Shown here piece after piece: positions 1,187 through 42,189 of a stretch of DNA of 44,592 bases; positions within the stretch are counted from its first letter, which is position 1, and every line of letters starts with the position of its first letter. The stretch lies in sequence record MN158212.1. The stretch is one strand, 5' to 3'. The notes beneath the pieces were generated by a model. That model was not told where the DNA came from and did no database searches. It saw nothing but the letters and a program-made list of their open reading frames with translations. The stretch comes from Escherichia phage BEK1-1. The position numbers were made by a program, and so were the translations under genes.

Positions 1187-1262
1187 ATTTAACCTCGTTC
1201 GTCGTTGATGGGGGTAATCATACTCCACCTTTTAATTTTTTATTTAGCAATTTGTGCTATTT
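1187..1262 (-). promoter_or_regulatory. box promoter (AAATAGCACAAATTGCTAAA, 20 nt, TATGAT, leader ACCCCCATC...) upstream of the annealase gene
   Basis: Direct reading of the reverse complement; same architecture as the other copies. Confidence 0.5.
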
Positions 1263-2226
1263 AAATTTCTTTATACTTCCTCATATCCCACTCAGGAACA
1301 TCTAAGTCGATCTCTGTTGCGCCCATTGCATACCCTGGCCACACGTCATTCTCTTTACACTTCTTGTAAGTGGCAAGCGCCTCTAGATACATTCTGCGGC
1401 CAACCTTCAGTTGCTCTTCTGTAATATTGTAAAGCATTGGTAGGTAAGGCTCCTCTTTCTCGATTGCAAGTAGCCTTACTTTTGTTTTTCTTTTTTCATT
1501 AAAAGCCCTAACAAAAACATCGTGCTGTAGCGCCATTTTTGCAAGATAACCATGCTTGAATGCAAGCCTCCCAAACTCATGAGGTGATGCGCTGGCTGTC
1601 GTCTTCAGGTCGGTAATGCATACCATACCATCAACAACATCGACATGGTCAATTCGGATCTTAACGCCAACGCCAAGAATCTCACCGAAGATAGATAATT
1701 CCTTCTGCGCCGTCTCGCTATTAACGATTGCATTATATGCAGGAATATTGCAAAGAACCTCACGCATCGCGACAACTTTGTCATAGTCTGCTGCGCTAAC
1801 TAGCTCCTTGCCCTCTACAAGAGCCTGTGCGCTCTCCTGCTGCTCAATTAGCCATTTAACAGGCCAATCCTCACCAGATCGATACATCATCTCTACGAGC
1901 TCGCTATAACCCTTCCCGGAAGTGCCAGCCACGCCAACTTTTTTAAGTGCTGAAGCTAAACCTGCCTGGCTTGTAATTAAGCCTTCAATCGCGTCAAGGT
2001 CTGTAGCTCGAAGGTATTCTTTATCGAATACATCTTGCTCCAAAATCATCGTGTGGCTTAGTGTGCCGAACTTAAGCGCCTTGCTATCATTATTTCGCTG
2101 CTTAAATTTCCACTTCGCTGGTGATCCTTGGATAATCTCGACAAGTGAAGAGCCTGAGATGTGGTCAGTTTCAGCGTGGTAAGCCTCGTTGCTTAGTTCT
2201 TCTCGTGTGTAAACTCTGAAAGTCAT
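1261..2226 (-). CDS. PD-(D/E)XK family recombination exonuclease (YqaJ/RecE-like)
   Basis: 321 aa; ...IDHVDVVDGMVCITDLKTT... fits D...(D/E)xK; synteny with annealase and SSB. Confidence 0.55.
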   Translation of the reverse strand: MTFRVYTREELSNEAYHAETDHISGSSLVEIIQGSPAKWKFKQRNNDSKALKFGTLSHTMILEQDVFDKEYLRATDLDAIEGLITSQAGLASALKKVGVAGTSGKGYSELVEMMYRSGEDWPVKWLIEQQESAQALVEGKELVSAADYDKVVAMREVLCNIPAYNAIVNSETAQKELSIFGEILGVGVKIRIDHVDVVDGMVCITDLKTTASASPHEFGRLAFKHGYLAKMALQHDVFVRAFNEKRKTKVRLLAIEKEEPYLPMLYNITEEQLKVGRRMYLEALATYKKCKENDVWPGYAMGATEIDLDVPEWDMRKYKEI

Positions 2227-2420
2227 TTTATCTTAACCTCTACGTTTCTAAGTGATACATCTACAGGTATTTCACTGCATCCCATAATAGCTTTTGATAT
2301 GCCAGAGCATGTTGTTGTTATGTTTATCTCTCTTCCAGTTTCAAATTTTATCCTTATTCTTACCTCTGGATCTGATTCGTCGTTGTATGGTGACTTATTT
2401 ATGTCTATAAAAGCCTTCAT
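2223..2420 (-). CDS. hypothetical protein (65 aa)
   Basis: ORF overlapping the exonuclease start by 4 nt (coupled arrangement). Confidence 0.3.
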   Translation of the reverse strand: MKAFIDINKSPYNDESDPEVRIRIKFETGREINITTTCSGISKAIMGCSEIPVDVSLRNVEVKIK

Positions 2421-2424
2421 ATTT

Positions 2425-2823
2425 TTACTCCTTAACCTTAACTACTTTAACAGACTTCAAATCTTCTTCAGTGAAGTATCCGCTCAGTACATCCCTAGCT
2501 TCCTCTTTAGTCTCGAATCTGTCAGCCTCGCTCTTATTCGTGGTGTATCCAGCTGGGCCACCAAAATAGCAGTCGCCGAACAGTGCGTTGTTTTTCTCTT
2601 TGATAATGTAGTAGGTCATTTCTGCATCTCTCTGGTTGTTTGCTTTGGATGAGGTAACTATATATTCGCAAGTACAGCCAGTCCAATTGGTTTCGCCAAT
2701 CGTTGATTCAAACTTACGCGTGAATATTTGTAATTCTGTGTAGGCATTGGCACTAGTTACGTTTCTTGGCATCTCATCCCAGATATAGCTCAATGTAACC
2801 ATCGTGTATATCGTGTATATCAT
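2425..2823 (-). CDS. hypothetical protein (132 aa; start uncertain)
   Basis: First gene leftward of divergent control region A; no recognisable motif. Confidence 0.35.
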   Translation of the reverse strand: MIYTIYTMVTLSYIWDEMPRNVTSANAYTELQIFTRKFESTIGETNWTGCTCEYIVTSSKANNQRDAEMTYYIIKEKNNALFGDCYFGGPAGYTTNKSEADRFETKEEARDVLSGYFTEEDLKSVKVVKVKE

Positions 2824-3104: not shown

Positions 3105-3150
3105 AAATAGCACTAATTGCTAAAGACAACTGACTATCTTTAGGTATATT
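3105..3150 (+). promoter_or_regulatory. box promoter (AAATAGCACTAATTGCTAAA, 20 nt, TATATT) upstream of the Rha-like gene
   Basis: Direct reading. Confidence 0.5.
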
Positions 3151-3222: not shown

Positions 3223-3870
3223 ATGAACATTGAAGTGTGCAAAGAACAATCAAAAACCATGATGAGCACAAAGGAAATCGCAGAGTTAACCGGCAAACGT
3301 CATGATCACGTCGTTCGCGACACAAAGGAAATGATCAATGAATTGTTACATTATAACGATGCCCCAGATTTGGGTCATGATGATTATCAACTACTTACAG
3401 ACAATCGAGGCTATACATCTGAGATTTTACTCAACAAGGAACTAACCGAAACGCTAATCACTGGCTACAGTGTCGTACTTCGCCACAAAGTAATCCGCAG
3501 GCTTCATGAACTTGAGGCTTTAGTTAAAAAACAAGCGGAAGTAATCAGCCAGATGGTAAGCATTGATGAGCTTAAAGAGGTTCGAATGATGCTTGGTGTG
3601 GCTAATGCGCAGAATGCACACCTGAGCCAGCGCATTGTTGCAGAGCAAAGAATAAATGAGATCTTACTCATGGATAAGAGTACCGATGAAAAACTAGACA
3701 TGCTGGCTTGTGAGGCTCGCCAGTGTTGGGTTAGTCGATCTGATGAGATGGAGGAAAGATTTAAGTATGAAGCCCAATGCTTCGCCCTTAAAGAAAAGAA
3801 TGATGCGCTGACCGGATTGATTGAGAATAATCTCGGCATTGACATCAAGCTGCTGCTGGAAAAGAAATAG
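3223..3870 (+). CDS. Rha-family phage regulatory protein (antirepressor-like)
   Basis: N-terminal ...STKEIAELTGKRHDHVVRDTKEM... resembles the Rha signature; C-terminal half coiled-coil-like; RBS GGAGAG. Confidence 0.5.
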   Translation: MNIEVCKEQSKTMMSTKEIAELTGKRHDHVVRDTKEMINELLHYNDAPDLGHDDYQLLTDNRGYTSEILLNKELTETLITGYSVVLRHKVIRRLHELEALVKKQAEVISQMVSIDELKEVRMMLGVANAQNAHLSQRIVAEQRINEILLMDKSTDEKLDMLACEARQCWVSRSDEMEERFKYEAQCFALKEKNDALTGLIENNLGIDIKLLLEKK

Positions 3871-3910
3871 CACTAATTGCTAAACACTGATCGCAAGGAT
3901 GCGATACTAT
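3865..3910 (+). promoter_or_regulatory. box promoter (AAATAGCACTAATTGCTAAA, 20 nt, TACTAT, leader ACTCCATCGAAACGAAA) upstream of cor
   Basis: Direct reading; the box overlaps the stop codon TAG of the preceding gene. Confidence 0.55.
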
Positions 3911-5141: not shown

Positions 5142-8100
5142 AGAAAGTACCTACTACAACTCTCCCTCCTCCAGGCAAGTTAACCGTGATTCCGTTTCCG
5201 TTAATCTGTACCGTATTGTTTGTTCCGTTAAAGGCGAATTCACCACTGTTGGCGTACAGTTTGCCGCGAATCTCAGCGTTACCAGACTTATCAATCCTCC
5301 ATCCTGTGCTTCCTGCCACGTAGTTGCTGGACTGAATAAAGTCACCAATCTTCGCGTTAGTAATTGAGCCATCTCCGATTACTGCGCTTTGGATGATTAC
5401 GTTTCCGTTCTCTACAACGAAGGGTAGTTGCCATTGACCGGAGCCAGAACCAATGCCATTACTGATTGCGAATCTGTTTGCGTCAAAAATAAACTGACTG
5501 CGAACATTATCACCAGTGCCAACTAGCTCCATGCTCATGCCGGATGAATAAGTCTGACCATTGTATTTCAGGCCAAGACTAATTCCGTACTGTACACCAG
5601 TTGACGTGGCATTAGAGAAAGCGTCTAACTTCTGGTTTAGAGCCGCCTCGTTTTCGCCAAGTCTTGCTGATAGAGCCGTGTCTGCTGTAGTCCTTGCTTC
5701 TGTCTCTGTGGCTAATGCAGTCTTAACTTCAGTAATCGATGCTACAACTTCATCATCTATCTGCGCTTTAAGGGCCGTTAGAGCCTCTACGCGTGCCTGA
5801 GTTTCATCGGCTATGAGATTCACCGCCTGAACATATTCAGCCTTACGTTTGCCGTTCTCCTTAGTCATGCGACGAACATCAGTGTCATTAGCCAATGCGT
5901 TCTCAAGAATTGACTCTGCCTGATTCTGAATATCCTGATTCTTTTGAATCGCATTCTGCTCCAGGTATTTGAATCCTTCAGAACCCTCAATATCAACCTT
6001 GATGTAATCATTGATAATGTTAGCGTCGTCAGTACTCATGCCTCTAGCAAAATAAGACCAATCAGAGGTATTTCCGATTCTGTCAATCAATCTTGCGCGA
6101 TACCAGATGACCTTACCTGGCTGAATTGGCGTATGCCAGTACTCATAGGCTGGATAAGGTAGTAAAGTCAGCGAGCTTGCGTTATCTGGATTGTAAGTAC
6201 CATCGCCATTATCAGGAACCTGCTGAAGCTCAGTGTAAGCAGTATCACCAGAGCCTTCAGGGAAACCCCACTTAACACGAATGCCGAATACCTCATCTGT
6301 TGATGCCGTGATAACAGTAGGCGCAGATGGGCGACCAATCTTGCCAGTTAGCGATACCGTTACAATGTCAGACCAGGAAGACACGTTTTCAGTATCTGAT
6401 ACGCTGCGAACCCTAACGTCATAGATTCCTGCGTAAATACCTTCGATATCAACCTCTGTGCTAGCTGTTCTGGGTACGTTAATCCAGTTGCCATTCTCTT
6501 TTCTCCACTGAACATTGTAGGTTTTAGCGTATGGAGCTTTATCCCATCCGATAACCATCGTCTCAACCGACAAGCCCTGAACAACCTTGCTATAACTTGA
6601 CACGGTCAAGTTTTCTGGTGGCGACAATCTGTCAGGCTCTACGATTGAAGTCGGGCGGTCAACAATGTTTACGCCATAATCAATCTCGTCATACTTGTTA
6701 GGGTCGTACTCCACTGCTGTAATCGTATACTGGAATGAATCCGATCCATCAGAATCTGCTTTTTGAATCCCGGTCACAACATATTGCTGAAGAGCAAGAT
6801 TGTCCTTATCAATTGCGAACACAGTATCAGGTTGAGCTACAAAGCTAAAAGCAGTATTCAGGTTGATGGTTCTACCGTCTTCCGAAATGCTGGCAATAGT
6901 TCTCGCTTCAGGGCTTCCGTCGGGTTTGTTCAGAAGAATTCTGTCACCTGGAGCTGCGTCAACTTTAAACTGGGTAAAAACCTGCAATCCCTGAACTGAT
7001 TCAATACGACCGGAAAGGTTTAACTGATAGTTACTAGACCATGCCGCGTCATTAACCGCAATGACCTCTCCAATCATCGGAATCATGCCCTCCAACCCAG
7101 TGGTGAAGCTGATAGTTTCGCTTCTCAGGTTGGTTTTCAGGAGCCATCTGCCGCGTCTGTTTGCTTCACTTCTCCGCGTACATCCAATTGCCGTAAGGTC
7201 GACTGGATTAAATCCGAATCTGCGAGTAGCTTCCAGTTCAAATACCGGCTCAACATCCTGCTGATAGTTGTTCTCCACATCATCAAACTGAACGTTCGCC
7301 GTAGTGTAAAGGCTCTTATCACTGGCAAAGGTGCGACTGAACAATCCGTTTACAACGTTATCATTCGTGAAGATGTAAGATGGGTTGCGAGGCTTATCAA
7401 CCACTATACCAATCTTTTCGCCATCATAGAAAGTCAGGCCACGGAAGATTGAGCAGATATCACGAATTAGCGTGTAGGCCTCAACCTTATTCTGTACAAC
7501 CATATCGCACAGGTAGCGCGGCTCCATTCCACCTTTTCCATCAGGAACCATCTGGTCGCAGAATTGCGCAGCCTCGTAAAGACCCCACTTATCAATCTCC
7601 ACGCCCAACTCTCGTTGATCAAGGCCATAGCGACGGTTTGTCACTAAGTCATAAAGAACCCAAGCTGGGTTATTTGACCATGCCATTTTGAACAGTCCAT
7701 TCCATGTTCCGCTGTAAGTTCTTGCTTCCGGGTCGTAGTTGGTTGGGACCTGAATCAGCTTCCAGCGCTTCTTGATAGAGATTGTCGGTATTCCGTTAGG
7801 GAAAAGGTCAGATCCAAACTCAACATAAACCAGAGCCGTAAGCGGATAGCGGAATTTAGCGTCAATTACTTCCTGATAGGTTGTAATCTGCATCCCGTTA
7901 ACCAATGTGCTACTTGTTGAATCCGCTGTAATCTTTCGGATGCGAACCAATGCGCTATCAAATTCAGCCGGAAGGTTCACTCGAATGCTGCGGTCGTAAC
8001 CTGTAGTTGTCTTTCCGTTGGCAACTCCTCGAGTATATTCCTGATAAGCGCCACCATTAACAGAAAGATCAATCGCATACTCGCAGGTTGTTCCGTTCAG

Positions 8101-15065: not shown

Positions 15066-15111
15066 ACTATACAGCAAAACTGAATAAGTGCTTTATCAAA
15101 AAGTGCTATGC
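15066..15111 (-). promoter_or_regulatory. box promoter (variant box, 20 nt, TATAGT, leader AACTCATCGAAACGAAA) upstream of the 82-aa gene
   Basis: Direct reading of the reverse complement. Confidence 0.5.
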
Positions 15112-25919: not shown

Positions 25920-25965
25920 ATTATATGCCATCCATGGCGACTGCGTTTAGCAATTCGTGCTATTT
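25920..25965 (-). promoter_or_regulatory. box promoter (AAATAGCACGAATTGCTAAA, 20 nt, TATAAT)
   Basis: Direct reading of the reverse complement. Confidence 0.55.
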
Positions 25966-26699: not shown

Positions 26700-26755
26700 C
26701 GATGGGGTAACTATAACAAATTACCCCAATACAGTTTTAGCAATTCGTGCTATTT
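26700..26755 (-). promoter_or_regulatory. box promoter (AAATAGCACGAATTGCTAAA, 20 nt, TATAGT, leader ACCCCATCGAAACGA)
   Basis: Direct reading of the reverse complement. Confidence 0.55.
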
Positions 26756-27380: not shown

Positions 27381-27427
27381 ACTATAACAAAACCCGCCGT
27401 AGCTGGTTATGCAAAAGGTGCTATTTA
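27381..27427 (-). promoter_or_regulatory. box promoter, half-box variant (AAATAGCACCTTTTGCATAA, about 20 nt, TATAGT)
   Basis: Direct reading of the reverse complement. Confidence 0.4.
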
Positions 27428-28363: not shown

Positions 28364-28385
28364 TGTTTAGCAATTCGTGCTATTC
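28340..28385 (-). promoter_or_regulatory. box promoter (AATAGCACGAATTGCTAAA, 20 nt, TATGAT, leader ACCCAATCGAAAACA)
   Basis: Direct reading; the box overlaps the TAG stop of the upstream gene. Confidence 0.55.
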
Positions 28386-30584: not shown

Positions 30585-30745
30585 TGCTGCTGCCATCTGA
30601 GATAAATTATTTCGATCTTGAAGTCATAAGCGCATACAGCTGGAAGGGTTGGCCTTGCGGGGACTGGTTTCGCGAAGACTTACTTGAGAGTCATGAAATT
30701 ATGCTCAAGGCCATAGAAAAAGCACGAAATAGCACTAATTGCTAA
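30584..30745 (+). CDS. hypothetical protein (53 aa)
   Basis: ATG overlaps the upstream stop (TGATG); 3' end AAT AGC ACT AAT TGC TAA coincides with the box. Confidence 0.35.
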   Translation: MLLPSEINYFDLEVISAYSWKGWPCGDWFREDLLESHEIMLKAIEKARNSTNC

Positions 30746-34175: not shown

Positions 34176-34391
34176 TTACTTGCTCCTTATATTGATTGCT
34201 GTTTTCAAGTCTCCCGATTCAAGAGCCCGCCTGATAGCTTGACTATCCTTATACTTCCAGTAAGCACCCCAAACTCCAAAAATGATTAGAGCGATAAGGC
34301 TGATTATTGCTATAGTCATTTGACCAGTTGCTGCGCCAGTTACCGCAGCACCTCCTGTTGATGCCGTAGCGGCGTTAATTACTTCCCTCAT
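34176..34391 (-). CDS. holin (pinholin-like, two hydrophobic segments)
   Basis: Start at internal ATG (MREVIN...) after GGTGGA; Gly/Ala-rich first segment then AIISLIALIIFGVWGAYW; immediately upstream of the endolysin. Confidence 0.55.
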   Translation of the reverse strand: MREVINAATASTGGAAVTGAATGQMTIAIISLIALIIFGVWGAYWKYKDSQAIRRALESGDLKTAINIRSK

Positions 34392-34467
34392 GTGATCCAC
34401 CTTTATGTATTTGTCAATGTTTAAGTTAATAAAAGAATGATACATTAGCACCGCTCGGAAAAGAAGC

Positions 34468-34495
34468 ATAAAAAAAGGGAGCCAAAAGGCTCCCC
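34468..34495 (-). terminator. intrinsic terminator upstream of the lysis cassette
   Basis: Minus strand GGGAGCC-TTTT-GGCTCCC followed by TTTTTTTATGC. Confidence 0.7.
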
Positions 34496-34698: not shown

Positions 34699-34739
34699 TT
34701 TGTGTTTCCTCGTTTAGTTTATCTCGTTTCGATGTGGTG

Positions 34740-34786
34740 ATTATGCCGCATTTCTACGGCATTAGTTAGGCAAAAAGTGCTATTTA
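34740..34786 (-). promoter_or_regulatory. box promoter, half-box variant (AAATAGCAC..., 20 nt, CATAAT, leader ACCACATCGAAACGAG)
   Basis: Direct reading of the reverse complement. Confidence 0.45.
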
Positions 34787-35265
34787 CCGTGCCTCTCTGT
34801 GAATTCTGGGTTACCCTCGTAAACTGACTTCGCATATGATACTGCTTCTTCTTTTGTGTAGAAGGTTTTGTAAACCCTGTTTTTATCAATCTGAATTTGA
34901 ACAAGCCACGGCTTTCCATCCCTTTTTATCTTATTTATGAAGTAAACACCTGTAACTCCTGATGTGTTATCCTTTCTCATAGCTGCATTCTTGCAGTTAA
35001 CCCATCTATCTACGCATCTCAAATTCTCTATCCGATTATCGTGCTTAACTCCATTAATGTGATCGATTTCCATACCTTTAGGGACTTCTCCGTTATGCAT
35101 TTCCCATATTACTCGATGGGCAAAAGTCATCTTTGAAAACAGTTTAGTCCTAACGTACCCCCTCAAATCAATATACCCAGCCTTAACTCCGTTATAAGAT
35201 GATACCCTGTGGTTCTTTCTGTACAAATCACCATTTGAATATTCGTAATAATCGTGCCAATTCAT
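34780..35265 (-). CDS. HNH homing endonuclease with AP2-like DNA-binding domain
   Basis: ...AHRVIWEMH...EIDHINGVKHDNRIENLR... (HNH) and ...SGVTGVYF...KPWLVQI...KTFYTKEEA... (AP2-like). Confidence 0.7.
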   Translation of the reverse strand: MNWHDYYEYSNGDLYRKNHRVSSYNGVKAGYIDLRGYVRTKLFSKMTFAHRVIWEMHNGEVPKGMEIDHINGVKHDNRIENLRCVDRWVNCKNAAMRKDNTSGVTGVYFINKIKRDGKPWLVQIQIDKNRVYKTFYTKEEAVSYAKSVYEGNPEFTERHGK

Positions 35266-35293
35266 TTCAATCTCCTCTCGTTTCTATAAAACA

Positions 35294-35339
35294 ATAATAG
35301 CCGCTTTCGCGGCTACTGTTTTAACAAAAGGTGCTATTA
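35294..35339 (-). promoter_or_regulatory. box promoter, variant, with hairpin TAGCCGC-GAAA-GCGGCTA inside the 20-nt spacer
   Basis: Direct reading; the hairpin may also terminate transcripts from the upstream phosphoesterase gene. Confidence 0.4.
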
Positions 35340-36491
35340 GTATTTGGATCCAGGGTTTGCGTCACGAAGCATTTCAACAGGAATGCTCACTCGACTAACT
35401 TCTCCATACTTCTTGTGATACGTAATAACGTTTGCACTACGCCCAGAGAAGTACCCGCCCTTGGATGAGTACTCATCTTTTGCAGCAAGTGTCTGGTGTT
35501 GCTCAATAATCATCAAGCTAGTTTCCTTAACCGCTCTGTGGTGCAGGTGGCCTAGGTGCGTGTATGCGAACTTGGATTTACCAAACATCTCACGATACTT
35601 AGCAATTATTGCTGATTCAACTCTGGAGAAGTTAGCGCAATGCCCGTGATGCATGGCAATCATAACGTCTCCAAATTCATATGCGTAGTAAGGGGAAACT
35701 TCGCGATTCACTTCAACTCGCTCATTTTCAATAAATACTTCATGAAACATCTCGCGCAACCATAATGAAGATACCGGGTTGTGATTTCCCTCACAAATCA
35801 ATAGCTTAACCTTTTTATGTTTAACCAGGCACATGCTTATGGCTGCCTTGATTAATTTAATCTGAGTCCGAATCATTCGGAATAATCTAGTATCAGCAGA
35901 AAGAATGTGACCACTCATTGGGGTTACAGCTTTCATTGAGTCGTAGTGAGCCTCATCCCCTAAAAAGTTAATTATGCATTCATCGCTGTTCGGGCTCATT
36001 GCCACGGCGCTGCTGAACCAGTCCAATGCTAATTTCTCAGCAATCTTGGTGTCATAATTGTCACCACCTTCCTCTGCGCAAGCAAGCATTCCAATGTGAT
36101 GGTCTGTGATGGTGTAGAGGTTGAGAATGTCAGAATTAGTTATCTCACCTGAGTGGTTAACAGCATCGTACTTAGGTAGCTCTTTCTTAAGCTCCTCAAC
36201 AACAATTTGCATCAGCTCTTGCTGTCGCTCCTTGTCAACTTCTGATTTAACCCACTGACCTTTAATCTCACCATCGGCACCAATTAAGCTAGACACACCT
36301 TTGACAGCGTAACCTTGAGGAATTAGGTTGCTTACATCACGGCCGTGCCCCTCACCCCGTTTTGCCAGCTTACTACGACGCAATTCAACGTTGCGAATGT
36401 TCATTCCGTACTTCTCTGCGATTGCCTTGTTGGTCATTCCATTCGCCAGCTCTTCGCGTAGTTGTTCGTTGGTGATTTTTGCAGTTGCCAT
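35337..36491 (-). CDS. calcineurin-like metallophosphoesterase with N-terminal helix-turn-helix domain
   Basis: N-terminal ...MTNKAIAEKYGMNIRNVELRR... (HTH-like); phosphoesterase-like motifs ...ITDHHIG..., ...GDEAH..., ...EGNHN..., ...MHHGH..., ...GHLHH... Confidence 0.55.
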   Translation of the reverse strand: MATAKITNEQLREELANGMTNKAIAEKYGMNIRNVELRRSKLAKRGEGHGRDVSNLIPQGYAVKGVSSLIGADGEIKGQWVKSEVDKERQQELMQIVVEELKKELPKYDAVNHSGEITNSDILNLYTITDHHIGMLACAEEGGDNYDTKIAEKLALDWFSSAVAMSPNSDECIINFLGDEAHYDSMKAVTPMSGHILSADTRLFRMIRTQIKLIKAAISMCLVKHKKVKLLICEGNHNPVSSLWLREMFHEVFIENERVEVNREVSPYYAYEFGDVMIAMHHGHCANFSRVESAIIAKYREMFGKSKFAYTHLGHLHHRAVKETSLMIIEQHQTLAAKDEYSSKGGYFSGRSANVITYHKKYGEVSRVSIPVEMLRDANPGSKY

Positions 36492-37662: not shown

Positions 37663-37696
37663 TCTTTAAAATCGTCTTTAGCAATTCGTGCTATTT
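37651..37696 (-). promoter_or_regulatory. box promoter (AAATAGCACGAATTGCTAAA, 20 nt, TATAGT, leader ACTCCATCGAAACGAAA)
   Basis: Direct reading of the reverse complement. Confidence 0.55.
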
Positions 37697-38110
37697 TGAA
37701 ATCATTTCTTCAAATGCTGCCAGGAAGCCCTCTCTACCGTAGGCAACTCCAGCGAAACCTCCTGATTCTCTCACGCTTTTAAGGAAGGACTTCTGTTCGT
37801 CACTGACTGGACTAGCTTGAGTTTTTCCCGCCCTCTTTAGCTCTATGGCCCCAAAAGGGTACTTTCCTCTAAGTGATTCAGGTATCAGGAATAAGCAGTC
37901 CGAAACCCCCTTAAGCAATCCTTTGGCCTGGTCCTTCCTTGCTTGTCCAATGGTCTTCTTACCCTCATTCACGCAGTGGAAAAATACCATCTCTGGATAG
38001 TTATACTTAACCCAATCAGAGCAAAAGATTTGTTCGTCATCCTCTTTCGGGCATGACTTAACCGGGCCAGGGTAAAACTCAATGTAATCAACTTTGTCTG
38101 TAATGTTCAT
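37691..38110 (-). CDS. VRR-NUC domain nuclease
   Basis: ...GVSDCLFLIPE...GAIELKRAGKTQASPVSDEQKSFL...GGFAGVA fits the VRR-NUC PD-(D/E)XK pattern; coupled to the helicase gene. Confidence 0.6.
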   Translation of the reverse strand: MNITDKVDYIEFYPGPVKSCPKEDDEQIFCSDWVKYNYPEMVFFHCVNEGKKTIGQARKDQAKGLLKGVSDCLFLIPESLRGKYPFGAIELKRAGKTQASPVSDEQKSFLKSVRESGGFAGVAYGREGFLAAFEEMISK

Positions 38111-40202: not shown

Positions 40203-40688
40203 ATGAATGCAGTCGACAAGCGAACCATTAACGGTAATAACGGAACCATCCGCACTGAAGACAAAAAGCAACGGAAACGACCTTCAGGTTACTACGTTTT
40301 GAAAGATGAGGTAAGGGCGGGTTTACGTGCGCGGCTGGAAATTGTTCTTGATTTCTTCGGCACAAAGGCAAATATGGCAAAGCAATTAAAGGTAACACCA
40401 CAGGCTGTAGAGGAATGGTTTAAGCGCGGCATGATTTCTGCGCGCGGGGCTCAACTCTCACACAACTACTACAAGCGAACCGGGGAAGGCTTTCGCGCCA
40501 CATTCTGCCGACCAGATCTGCAATTCGACGGCAACGGCAAGCCTCTTACTCTACGTTGCAAAAAGCGTCACATGCTGCGTGTTGTTACTGAGGCTGAATT
40601 AGCCACCAAGCCAGAGTGTCGATCATGGCGCAAGATTAAGGAAGAGAATCGCAAAAAGCGAGAAGCAGAGAAAAATAGCACGAATTGA
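40203..40688 (+). CDS. putative HTH DNA-binding regulator (161 aa)
   Basis: ...FGTKANMAKQLKVTPQAVEEWFKRGMIS... resembles a Cro/CI-type helix-turn-helix; basic N- and C-termini. Confidence 0.45.
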   Translation: MNAVDKRTINGNNGTIRTEDKKQRKRPSGYYVLKDEVRAGLRARLEIVLDFFGTKANMAKQLKVTPQAVEEWFKRGMISARGAQLSHNYYKRTGEGFRATFCRPDLQFDGNGKPLTLRCKKRHMLRVVTEAELATKPECRSWRKIKEENRKKREAEKNSTN

Positions 40689-40725
40689 TAAACAATGGCG
40701 CTATGCATTGTGTATAGTGCCTTTA
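40673..40725 (+). promoter_or_regulatory. box promoter (AAATAGCACGAATTGATAAA, 20 nt, TATAGT) upstream of the second HNH gene
   Basis: The box overlaps the last codons (NSTN-stop) of the HTH gene. Confidence 0.5.
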
Positions 40726-40738
40726 TTGTTTATGGAGG

Positions 40739-41269
40739 GTGTATATGAAAGTTAATGATTTTGTTTATGTTGATGATGAATTTAAATTAAGATGGAAGAG
40801 TAGAGGTGTTGAATTCTTCAAAACAGAGAGGTCATCAAAGATCTGGAATAGTAGGTTTGCAAACAAGGAATGTGGATACATTAGGGATGACGGCTATCTT
40901 TCTTTTGAGTTCAATGGTCGAGCATACAGAAATCACAGGGTGATATGGGAAATTGTAACTGGTAATGAAATAGATGATAACATGGAGATTGACCATATAG
41001 ATCATAATACAACAAACAACAATACTGAAAACCTTAGACTTGTTGACAGGAAAGAGAATTGCAAAAACCAATCCATGATGCCCCATAACTCGAGTGGCTT
41101 CACAGGTGTTCACTGGTGGTCAGCAAGAAACAAATGGAGAGCCCGCATCGAATGTGATGGCAGAGTGAAAACAAAAACATTTGAAGACTTTAATGACGCC
41201 GTCGAGTGGAGAAAAGAAATGAACATAAATCTTGGCTTTCACAAGAATCATGGAGATAAGAAAAAATGA
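40739..41269 (+). CDS. HNH homing endonuclease with AP2-like domain (paralogue of 34780..35265)
   Basis: ...YRNHRVIWEI...EIDHIDHNTTNNNTENLR... and ...SGFTGVHW...KWRARIECDGRVKTKTFEDFNDAVEW... Confidence 0.7.
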   Translation: MYMKVNDFVYVDDEFKLRWKSRGVEFFKTERSSKIWNSRFANKECGYIRDDGYLSFEFNGRAYRNHRVIWEIVTGNEIDDNMEIDHIDHNTTNNNTENLRLVDRKENCKNQSMMPHNSSGFTGVHWWSARNKWRARIECDGRVKTKTFEDFNDAVEWRKEMNINLGFHKNHGDKKK

Positions 41270-42189
41270 AATTTTATGATAAGAAAGAGGTATTGCCAAG
41301 AATGATGGGGATGTGGAAGGATGCCCTCATAAACATTTGTGATGCGCCTGAGAGCTTCTTTAATGGCAAGCACCAGCCATGCCTATATTGTGGAGGTCGG
41401 GATCGGGCTAGATGGACTGATAACCTATCTATAAAAGGTGACGGCGGAAATATATGCAATCAGTGCGGAAACGACACTGGAATAGGGTTGATGATGAGGC
41501 TTACTGGAATGAACTACAATGAGGCCATAAATGTATTAGGTGACTGGCTCAACCTTATACCTACAGAGGCTATATCAAAAGCAAACAAAAGAGCTTCAAG
41601 AACATCACCATACAAAATGGGAGCACAGATCGACCACGAAAGATGCCTGGAGATAATGGAAAGAACTGAAAGAGTAGAATCAACCCCACTCAGCACATAT
41701 GAGGGTATCTATAGTGAGTTTGGTTTTGATGTTGGCAGGACAAAATCAGGCGAACTAATACACGCAATACCGTGTTTTATGGCTTATAGTGACGGCATAT
41801 CGGAAGAAATGTGCAATGTAATGTTTATCAATGAAGATGGAGATGTTAGTTATGCTGCAAAAGATTATACTCGCCAATCTGTCGCTGTTATTGGTGCCTT
41901 TAAAAGTGATGAGTACGCTTATCTGGTCGATAATCTCATTGACGGCTATCGTGTTCACATTGCTACTGGGAGCCGCTGTGTGCTTGTTTGCTACTCTAGT
42001 TACAACATGGAAATGGTTGCTTATGCGCTTAGAAACCACAAGCTGAGAGTGGCTTGTACTCGCCACGATTTTGATTTACTCGCCGTTGCTGATGATCGCA
42101 ATCTTGATGTGGTAATGCCAAATGATGATAATTTTTTCAAGTCAGGCATAAGAAAGCGAATATACAAAGCAAGCGAATTACTAGACTAA
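41266..42189 (+). CDS. putative DNA primase (N-terminal Zn-ribbon)
   Basis: ...CLYCGGRDRARW...CNQCGN... resembles the primase zinc-ribbon; lies next to the helicase block; ATGA overlap with the HNH gene. Confidence 0.5.
   Translation: MKFYDKKEVLPRMMGMWKDALINICDAPESFFNGKHQPCLYCGGRDRARWTDNLSIKGDGGNICNQCGNDTGIGLMMRLTGMNYNEAINVLGDWLNLIPTEAISKANKRASRTSPYKMGAQIDHERCLEIMERTERVESTPLSTYEGIYSEFGFDVGRTKSGELIHAIPCFMAYSDGISEEMCNVMFINEDGDVSYAAKDYTRQSVAVIGAFKSDEYAYLVDNLIDGYRVHIATGSRCVLVCYSSYNMEMVAYALRNHKLRVACTRHDFDLLAVADDRNLDVVMPNDDNFFKSGIRKRIYKASELLD

Follow-up and report, generated by a model that had tools for sequence, protein, structure and literature searches.

Escherichia phage BEK1-1 carries two free-standing genes for HNH-AP2 endonucleases, hereafter HNH1 and HNH2, at sites which are empty in most of its close relatives, and sequence comparison suggests that both are probably there through intronless homing by two independently acquired endonucleases, a reading to which we give a probability of roughly 0.75. 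The window analysed here is the whole stretch of 44,592 nucleotides in record MN158212.1. The genomes nearest to BEK1-1 in the phage collection are T1-like siphoviruses of the Drexlerviridae, mostly Braunvirinae, with about 90% nucleotide identity. An earlier note on this DNA had described two paralogous homing endonuclease genes on opposite strands, each behind its own box promoter, and had regarded them as mobile and recently inserted. The list of open reading frames places both frames at the positions and on the strands given there, and the neighbours are also those described. HNH1 has the phosphoesterase/exonuclease gene on one side and a small DUF7244 gene, followed by holin and endolysin genes, on the other, and HNH2 lies between an HTH regulator and the primase. 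Both are separate genes with their own start and stop codons between complete neighbours, and neither is within an intron or an intein. The HNH1 product is 100% identical to the NCBI entry 'homing endonuclease [Escherichia phage BEK1-1]'. For HNH2, the frame reported earlier (40739..41269, plus strand) opens at a GTG at 40739; the likely true start is the ATG at 40745, because the sequence GGAGGG ends 5 nt upstream of it and overlaps that GTG, and because the orthologue in phage TR2 is annotated with 174 aa. The features of both sites are collected in Table 1.

Table 1. Coordinates of the two endonuclease genes, their flanking modules and their neighbours in the window.
Feature	Position	Strand	Details
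HNH1, free-standing HNH-AP2 endonuclease gene	34780..35265	minus	161 aa; HNH core residues ~48-87, AP2-like domain residues ~100-151
Extra module copy upstream of HNH1	35266..35339	minus	from the sequence and a gap-free alignment with 14 other copies
Box of the extra module, ATAGCACCTTTTG	35337-35325		overlaps exonuclease stop codon
GAAA-tetraloop hairpin of the extra module	35317-35296		dG -18.4, z -5.75; terminator-like
-10-like TATTAT of the extra module	35299-35294		together with GAAACGAG and RBS GAGGAG
Resident module upstream of the DUF7244 gene	34699..34783	minus	from alignment of occupied and empty sites
Box of the resident DUF7244 module	34783-34771		overlaps HNH1 stop codon TAG
Phosphoesterase/'DNA repair exonuclease' gene	35337..36491	minus	384 aa; phrog_704, E=3.7e-141
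HNH2, free-standing HNH-AP2 endonuclease gene	40745..41269	plus	174 aa from ATG
Resident primase module, now before HNH2	40675..40744	plus	aligned part 100% identical to HNH-less 12210I
Box of the module upstream of HNH2, ATAGCACGAATTG	40675-40687	plus	
Hairpin upstream of HNH2, with T-rich tail	40697-40721		dG -16.0, z -4.9; terminator-like
-10-like TATAGT upstream of HNH2			within 3' arm of the hairpin
RBS of HNH2, GGAGGG	40734-40739		
DNA primase gene	41266..42189	plus	307 aa; Pfam Zn_Ribbon_Prim, phrog_510

Nuclease core, AP2-like domain and family membership

Both proteins exceed the curated gathering score of the Pfam family HNH_3 (PF13392; 24.8 bits), HNH1 with 75.3 bits (E=2.8e-21) and HNH2 with 55.8 bits (E=3.6e-15), and all 45 aligned homologues match the same family. 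Each also matches phrog_99, 'HNH endonuclease', with an E-value of about 1e-49. Four residues of HNH1, D68, H69, N81 and N90, are invariant in the 45-member alignment, HNH2 included, and align with the VDH...N...N catalytic segment of I-HmuI, whose structure is the source of the roles which we presume for them, namely an Asp-His pair and two downstream Asn. The Pfam and phrog assignments and the conserved catalytic residues thus uphold the identification of both genes as free-standing HNH(-AP2) endonuclease genes. The sequence match to I-HmuI has E=0.0022 with the single protein and E=6.7e-10 with the family profile. The AlphaFold model of HNH1 (pLDDT 91.3) has I-HmuI (1u3e) as its best PDB match in Foldseek, with E=1.1e-4 and a probability of 1.00; I-PpoI, another His-Me enzyme, stands lower in the list with non-significant E-values of 0.23-1.7. 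The predicted model accordingly has the beta-beta-alpha-metal (His-Me) fold. Each of the two proteins consists of an N-terminal beta-rich region, the I-HmuI-like His-Me core and a C-terminal AP2-like domain.

The AP2-like assignment is supported indirectly. When the isolated C-terminal segments were compared with Pfam AP2 (PF00847), HNH1 gave no match and HNH2 reached only E=0.17 and 12.7 bits against a cut-off of 33.3. Because the Pfam model failed on both sequences, the assignment was examined through homologues, a family profile and the structure model. Nearly half of the aligned homologues (22 of 45) match PF00847 over the same columns, with a best E-value of 2.3e-11. In the profile search, solved AP2 domains follow directly after I-HmuI, weakly and over about 86-152 (PfAP2 3igm, E=0.031; WRI1, 0.04; AP2IX-6, 0.065; TEM1, 0.1). 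The C-terminal end of the HNH1 model is predicted to contain strands at 107-109, 120-126 and 129-135 and a helix at 138-151. Foldseek matches to AP2 structures are weak (3igm, E=0.56; 6sy0_C, rmsd 3.4 A over 49 columns), since the whole two-domain model served as the query. The AP2-like domain named in the earlier note therefore holds for the family, on the strength of homologues, profile and model, but not by direct Pfam matches of HNH1 and HNH2 themselves.

The two proteins are 37% identical over 140 aa (E=5e-20). They can be called paralogous insofar as they belong to one family, but hundreds of other phage HNH-AP2 genes are at least as close to them as they are to each other. At this identity they are members of one large family rather than recent duplicates, and by sequence they look like independent acquisitions. 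The family is abundant, with 1,591 phage records matching HNH1 and 921 matching HNH2 at E<=1e-10. A six-frame translation of the whole window, searched with the family HMM, gave only HNH1 and HNH2 and no third copy. More than 1,500 phage records match the HNH-AP2 class, but our literature search found no biochemically characterised member of it.

Repeated modules, exact junctions and divergent neighbours

A box of the form ATAGCAC-N3-TTG occurs 13 times without mismatch in the window, where 0.12 occurrences would be expected, so that the occurrence of the motif upstream of each HNH gene, as had been claimed, is far from chance. The module to which it belongs is present in 15 copies which align without gaps over about 65 columns, in the order box, TTGCTA, 22 nt of variable and hairpin-prone sequence, a -10-like hexamer in which A2 and T6 never vary, TACCCCATCGAAACGA, an RBS and ATG. 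All copies examined precede an adjacent gene and share its orientation. The box is also found in loci of Braunvirinae, Rogunavirinae and Webervirus, and a motif search did not find it in the Jerseyvirus or BUCT791 loci. A scan with the sigma-70 consensus did not call the site 1 modules promoters, because the spacer between TTGnnA and TAnnAT is 22 nt long; at site 2 the match was no better than 9/12. The module may be described as promoter-like, with a good -10-like hexamer but a spacer too long for a standard -35/-10 pair. The literature search gave nothing relevant on BEK1-1 or on a promoter motif described in T1-like phages.

At site 1 of HNH-less genomes, the exonuclease stop codon runs directly into TAATAGCACTTTTTGCCTAA, which is followed by a hairpin, GAAACGAG and the ATG of the DUF7244 gene. 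BEK1-1, G8 and DTL keep this DUF7244 module, the box of which now overlaps the HNH1 stop codon; in BEK1-1 it is the same copy as in the HNH-less genomes, with the right-hand insertion junction at this module. A second, different module copy lies between the exonuclease stop and the HNH1 start. Since module copies flank the gene on both sides, the insert comprises a module copy together with the HNH reading frame and is bounded by direct box repeats. Its junctions are exact when compared with HNH-less 12210III. The module upstream of HNH1 is 93-98% identical in T1, JMPW2, ACG-M12, AugustePiccard and DTL, in all of which it lies between the exonuclease and an HNH gene. In the T1 record, a rho-independent terminator is annotated at the hairpin of the equivalent module. 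The GAAA-tetraloop stem varies among phages (AGCCGC/GCGGCT, ACCCGC/GCGGGT and AGCGCC/GGCGCT), and because these changes are compensatory the hairpin structure appears to be under selection. By hairpin stability, the HNH-proximal modules rank first and third among the 15. We considered whether strong hairpins are specific to HNH genes and rejected this, as the site 2 hairpin is part of the primase's resident module and strong hairpins occur in other modules as well.

Site 2 is constructed differently. In HNH-less genomes the module, the RBS and ATGAA, the first five bases of the frame, belong to the primase, whereas in BEK1-1 and TR2 these signals and ATGAA open HNH2, and the primase is without a module of its own, being joined to HNH2 through an ATGA stop/start overlap (41266-41269). 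HNH2 has therefore taken over the signals of the primase and acquired no module. Consequently, the view that each gene sits behind its own box promoter fits HNH1 insofar as it has an extra copy of the promoter-like module, but not HNH2, which uses the resident module of the primase; the further statement that both genes had acquired the promoter module is wrong for HNH2, since in genomes lacking HNH2 the primase has the identical module, RBS and start for itself. The junctions at site 2 are exact, and the site is empty in 12210I and Sd1.

Both insertions have a divergent tract of the neighbouring gene on one side only, in a background of about 90-97% nucleotide identity on both sides of the two sites. 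At the DUF7244 edge of site 1, identity to the HNH-less relative is 92% at once, whereas beside HNH1 about 900 nt of the exonuclease gene, its 3' three-quarters (~35340-36250), are divergent; sliding nucleotide identity is 41-57% at 35400-36199 and rises sharply again to 91-95% from 36300. Compared with the HNH-less allele, the exonuclease protein gives 96, 78, 37, 46, 30, 18, 48 and 43% identity in successive segments of 50 aa. Its divergent part is nearer (47-62%) to the alleles of two phages with HNH1-type genes, Klebsiella phage BUCT791 and Jerseyvirus S4lw. At site 2, the regulator edge is 100% identical to the HNH-less relative at once, and the divergent tract takes up some 330 nt at the start of the primase gene (~41266-41600), with 65-70% nucleotide identity across 41200-41599 and 87-98% thereafter. 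The primase protein shows 31, 64, 70, 97, 97, 95, 91, 100 and 100% identity to the HNH-less allele in segments of 40 aa. Over the first 40 aa it shares 61% identity with the primase of Webervirus PMM-G3, a phage with an HNH gene at the same junction. Such one-sided tracts are the pattern expected of an endonuclease gene entering with part of its neighbour, and are consistent with, not proof of, co-conversion; they could also derive from ordinary mosaic recombination unrelated to the endonuclease.

Distribution among relatives and possible routes of acquisition

In the phage collection, 105 records match the region of site 1 and 94 that of site 2, with only one in each case covering at least 80% of the query. 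The HNH-less relatives listed have regions which are shorter by about 580 bases at site 1 and 510 bases at site 2. Independent empty genomes are far fewer than the records, because many of the relatives are near-identical isolates: 43 of the matching records have E. coli DSM 12242 as their common host, and many of the HNH-less genomes are such isolates of one Veterinaerplatzvirus. At site 1, the only close orthologues of HNH1 in Braunvirinae are those of vB_Ec-G8 (75%) and DTL (66%). For HNH2, the 50,697 phage records contain a single close orthologue, that of TR2 (92%), annotated as an HNH endonuclease and located at the same site. The comparison with relatives lacking the insertions, which the earlier note had proposed for defining the insertion sites, thus yields exact junctions and a majority of close relatives without both genes. 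The note had also named an observation that would speak against mobility, namely conservation of both genes at identical positions in all relatives, and this is not what the relatives display. Mobility fits their absence from most close relatives, the exact junctions and the one-sided divergent tracts.

The insertions can be called recent only in part, as the sites themselves are old, recurrent landing sites of several HNH lineages across Drexlerviridae. HNH1-type genes with 55-76% identity directly follow an exonuclease homologue in Braunvirinae, Rogunavirinae (Sf12), Jerseyvirus (S4lw and five related Salmonella phages), BUCT791 and three metagenomic contigs. What lies downstream of them varies and includes DUF7244, a polynucleotide kinase-phosphatase (HAD_PNKP) gene and tail genes; a relative with 42% identity to HNH1 is located among head-morphogenesis genes instead. 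Site 1 holds three lineages with 30-45% identity, the HNH1 lineage and two found in T1 (ST15), AugustePiccard and ACG-M12. Site 2 likewise holds three, mutually 35-45% identical, in BEK1-1/TR2, PMM-G3 and DTL (ORF60). Both DTL genes are listed as endonucleases in the paper on that phage (PMC5816109). The site 1 copy of DTL, which is unannotated in RefSeq, contains in the sequence as deposited an in-frame TAA that removes the conserved C-terminal FTERHGK, and this may reflect either decay or a sequencing error.

From these comparisons we infer nuclease activity, target sites and transfer during co-infection. BEK1-1 would enter a cell together with a relative lacking the HNH gene, and the enzyme would nick or cut the HNH-less allele, within the conserved neighbouring gene or close to it. 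The target of HNH1 would be the 3' part of the exonuclease/phosphoesterase gene, and that of HNH2 the 5', zinc-ribbon-coding part of the primase gene, with the AP2-type domain presumably binding DNA and providing site specificity. Recombinational repair using the HNH-bearing genome as template would then copy the endonuclease gene along with a stretch of its neighbour, and this co-copied stretch, being divergent, would presumably resist cleavage. HNH1 would move in one cassette together with a Drexlerviridae module of its own, comprising box, hairpin, -10-like element and RBS, and HNH2 would have been placed exactly behind the module, RBS and start codon of the primase, and so be co-expressed with it.

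The endonucleases might instead have had no part in their own spread, the cassettes being shuffled passively by homologous or microhomology recombination between the repeated modules and other short homologies; the proteins may then lack activity or do something else, for instance degrade the DNA of competitors or of the host. Both junctions of site 1 fall exactly in the box (TAATAGCAC / AAATAGCAC), so that the cassette is bounded by direct repeats, and the upstream module remains 93-98% identical across subfamilies with three HNH lineages behind it, as if it were a homology arm. In addition, a given exonuclease allele does not always go with a given HNH lineage, because DTL and Sf12 pair an HNH1-type gene with the other exonuclease allele class. 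We nevertheless consider passive shuffling unlikely, given that the catalytic residues are kept in both proteins and across the family, that an HNH1-type gene comes after the exonuclease even in the box-free loci of Jerseyvirus and BUCT791, that other family members occupy module-free junctions (DTL ORF63, for instance, is packed between helicase and VRR-NUC genes), and that the divergent tracts reach into the neighbouring gene and not into the module. A related proposal, which we hold to be quite improbable, is that the box modules do more than direct expression and act for HNH-AP2 cassettes as homology arms or portable landing pads, perhaps even as the sequences recognised by the AP2-like domain. 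If it were true, units of module and HNH gene would be swapped between phage subfamilies at module positions. It would account for the position of both site 1 junctions and for the near-constant module behind which three lineages stand from T1 to BEK1-1, but the module-free junctions and the HNH1 lineage following the exonuclease in phages without the box argue against it.

Ancestral HNH genes, repeatedly deleted in the relatives, would make the empty sites a product of loss and not the occupied ones a product of insertion. Occupancy of site 1 in T1 and several Braunvirinae is indeed old and widespread, and a deletion between the direct box repeats there would restore the empty state exactly. 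Loss is nonetheless very improbable, since the occupants of each site are only 30-45% identical while the flanking genes are much more conserved, since the tracts beside the HNH genes are closer to alleles of other genera than to those of their own subfamily, and since TR2 alone in the whole phage collection has a close orthologue of HNH2. Scarcely credible is a housekeeping role, either as a terminase HNH partner in packaging or as an AP2-type transcription regulator acting on the box modules. The AP2 fold is the DNA-binding domain of transcription factors elsewhere, and both genes adjoin promoter-like modules; however, most close relatives manage without either gene, both genes lie away from those of the terminase, their nuclease residues are intact, and the architecture is that of the HNN-AP2 class described as mobile and degenerating (PMC2248197). 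We therefore rejected both a packaging-associated HNH protein and a transcription factor, on the grounds of absence from most relatives, location and intact nuclease residues. Intronless homing by the two endonucleases remains our preferred reading.

Known systems and use of the sites

Among solved structures, I-HmuI of Bacillus phage SPO1 (PDB 1U3E) is the best match in both sequence and structure, and it shares with the BEK1-1 proteins the N-terminal beta region and the D-H...N...N nuclease core. I-HmuI nicks one strand of the intron-less allele. What sets the BEK1-1 proteins apart from I-HmuI is that they are free-standing and carry at the C-terminal end an AP2-like domain, predicted to comprise three strands and a helix; identity to I-HmuI is only about 23%. 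The HNH endonuclease of phage T1 (gene ST15, YP_003930) and its orthologue in AugustePiccard (Bas01) belong to the same HNH-AP2 family and lie at the same site as HNH1. In T1 the order is exonuclease, hairpin module, HNH gene, small DUF7244-type gene and holin, as it is around HNH1, and the upstream module in T1 and AugustePiccard is about 95-97% identical to that of HNH1 over 77 nt. The proteins themselves, however, constitute a lineage apart, with only 38-39% identity to HNH1, and the exonuclease allele differs.

A free-standing gene between conserved genes, present in some genomes and absent in others, with a polymorphic neighbour, is the pattern known from SegF, SegG and MobE of T4, and HNH1 and HNH2 share it; cleavage of the neighbour with subsequent co-conversion would be expected to produce it. 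The Seg enzymes of T4 are GIY-YIG proteins, and MobE is an HNH protein without an AP2 domain. For the T4 enzymes, cleavage and marker exclusion have been demonstrated experimentally. The two-domain architecture recurs in the free-standing HNN-AP2 genes scattered in the Xanthomonas phages Xp10, OP1 and Xop411, for which gain and degeneration have been described (PMC2248197). With these, the BEK1-1 proteins have in common an HNN core without cysteine dyads and the boxes DNR, NLR and EN followed by AP2; in the Xanthomonas phages, too, there are multiple copies per genome, positions that vary between relatives, and degenerate copies. No conserved flanks were found in that study, which proposed sequence-independent spread, whereas the lineages seen in BEK1-1 keep to particular, reused junctions. 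HNN-AP2 genes of T5, Rtp, RB16 and RB43 are also covered there (PMC2248197, citing Magnani et al. 2004), and multiple HNH copies have been noted in T1, Rtp and T5 (PMC2248197). HNH-AP2 genes have been counted in T4-related phages in a census of homing endonuclease genes (PMC2993671), and homing endonuclease 'infestation' with associated gene conversion has been reported in coliphage genomes, where it is a routine nuisance for comparative genomics (PMC8594841).

In view of the HNN-AP2 literature and of the name 'homing endonuclease' in the BEK1-1 record itself, the finding is already known in kind and in annotation, as a routine and named component of T1-like phage genomes, and it has little importance beyond careful annotation. 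What is added here is descriptive and consists of the exact junctions, the one-sided divergent tracts and the reuse of both sites by several lineages. For practical purposes, the exonuclease 3' part (~35340-36250) and the primase 5' part (~41266-41600) should be treated as recombinant tracts and excluded from phylogenies and taxonomy. Both junctions are well-defined, naturally tolerated insertion sites which could serve the engineering of Drexlerviridae, and BEK1-1 together with an HNH-less Veterinaerplatzvirus would form a convenient pair for the study of intronless homing by an HNH-AP2 enzyme.

Distribution of the HNH-AP2 family and occupancy of its junctions

Two metagenomic contigs, Logan ERR12726519 (L015) and ERR12726568 (L016), are identical in gene order, and in gene coordinates through position 3471; they differ by an additional HNH_3+AP2 gene in the latter, placed between a HAD_PNKP gene and a gene for a 188-aa protein. 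Another member of the family is thus directly seen to be polymorphic for presence or absence. Further members lie at the helicase/VRR-NUC junction of phage DTL and next to a DUF3987 helicase gene on a metagenomic contig (table); the helicase/VRR-NUC junction is unoccupied in BEK1-1, in which the two genes overlap (38107-38110). The family numbers six members in the genome of DTL and five in that of Sf12.

At site 1, the exonuclease/DUF7244 junction, DTL carries an HNH1-type gene, which corresponds to the 474-nt ORF in the list of the DTL paper (PMC5816109). An in-frame TAA in the deposited sequence truncates the product by ~15 residues at its C-terminus, with loss of the conserved FTERHGK motif, and the gene is either a decaying copy or affected by a sequencing error.

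Features of the BEK1-1 window and comparison loci
Feature	Sequence	Coordinates	Strand	Remark
Holin ORF	window	34176-34469	-	97 aa, mechanically called
HNH_3+AP2 gene	L016	3989-4462		absent from L015
HNH-AP2 gene	L021 (DTL)	7068-7541	+	helicase/VRR-NUC junction
HNH-AP2 gene	L011 (contig)	5482-5964	-	adjoins DUF3987 helicase
HNH1-type gene	L003 (DTL, NC_047893)	2184-2654	-	site 1; unannotated in RefSeq
Exact box	window	1248-1260	-
Exact box	window	3107-3119	+
Exact box	window	3867-3879	+
Exact box	window	15097-15109	-
Exact box	window	25951-25963	-
Exact box	window	26741-26753	-
Exact box	window	27412-27424	-
Exact box	window	28371-28383	-
Exact box	window	30729-30741	+
Exact box	window	34771-34783	-
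Exact box	window	35325-35337	-
Exact box	window	37682-37694	-
Exact box	window	40675-40687	+
Box near-copy	window	31316	+
Box near-copy	window	40188	-

Possible exchange within and beside HNH1

HNH1 (34780-35265(-)) and its orthologue in phage G8 (L001 2182-2655(-)) share ~94% identity over the N-terminal region and HNH core, whereas only about half of the positions are identical in the AP2-like domain, where BEK1-1 also has a four-residue insertion, RDGK, found in some metagenomic homologues as well. This contrast, together with the insertion, suggests that the DNA-binding domain has been exchanged inside an otherwise conserved gene. The neighboring exonuclease occurs in two allele classes, and JGI metagenome contig Ga0376683_0000434 (L013) carries tandem homologues upstream of the HNH gene: the first (552-1705), a BEK1-1-like allele (62% and 53%), is frameshifted into 221-aa and 155-aa ORFs, while the second (1804-2931) is intact and of the other class (47%). 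From sequence, the arrangement looks like the footprint of an incomplete allele replacement at the site.

Between exonuclease and HNH1 lies a GAAA-tetraloop hairpin (35296-35317(-)), the stem of which is preserved by compensatory changes among the window, G8, L011, L013 and L015 (AGCCGC/GCGGCT, ACCCGC/GCGGGT, AGCGCC/GGCGCT and AACCCC/GGGGTT); the same hairpin is annotated as a rho-independent terminator in the phage T1 record.

The box module and the holin start

Exact boxes number 13 in the window, against 0.12 expected. They belong to a repeated, intergenic module of constant spacing, in which AAATAGCAC-N3-TTGCTAAA is followed by a variable 22-nt stretch prone to form hairpins, a TAtaaT resembling a -10 element (A2 and T6 invariant), TACCCCATCGAAACGA, an RBS and ATG. 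No description of the module was found in the literature searched. The 22-nt spacer exceeds that of a canonical sigma-70 -35/-10 pair, which hints at a class of promoters, common to Drexlerviridae, that depends on an activator or departs from the standard type in some other way.

The holin probably starts at an internal Met, residue 27 of the called ORF, because the 71-position holin family profile phrog_2877 matches residues 27-97 and the holins of relatives are annotated at 71-75 aa.
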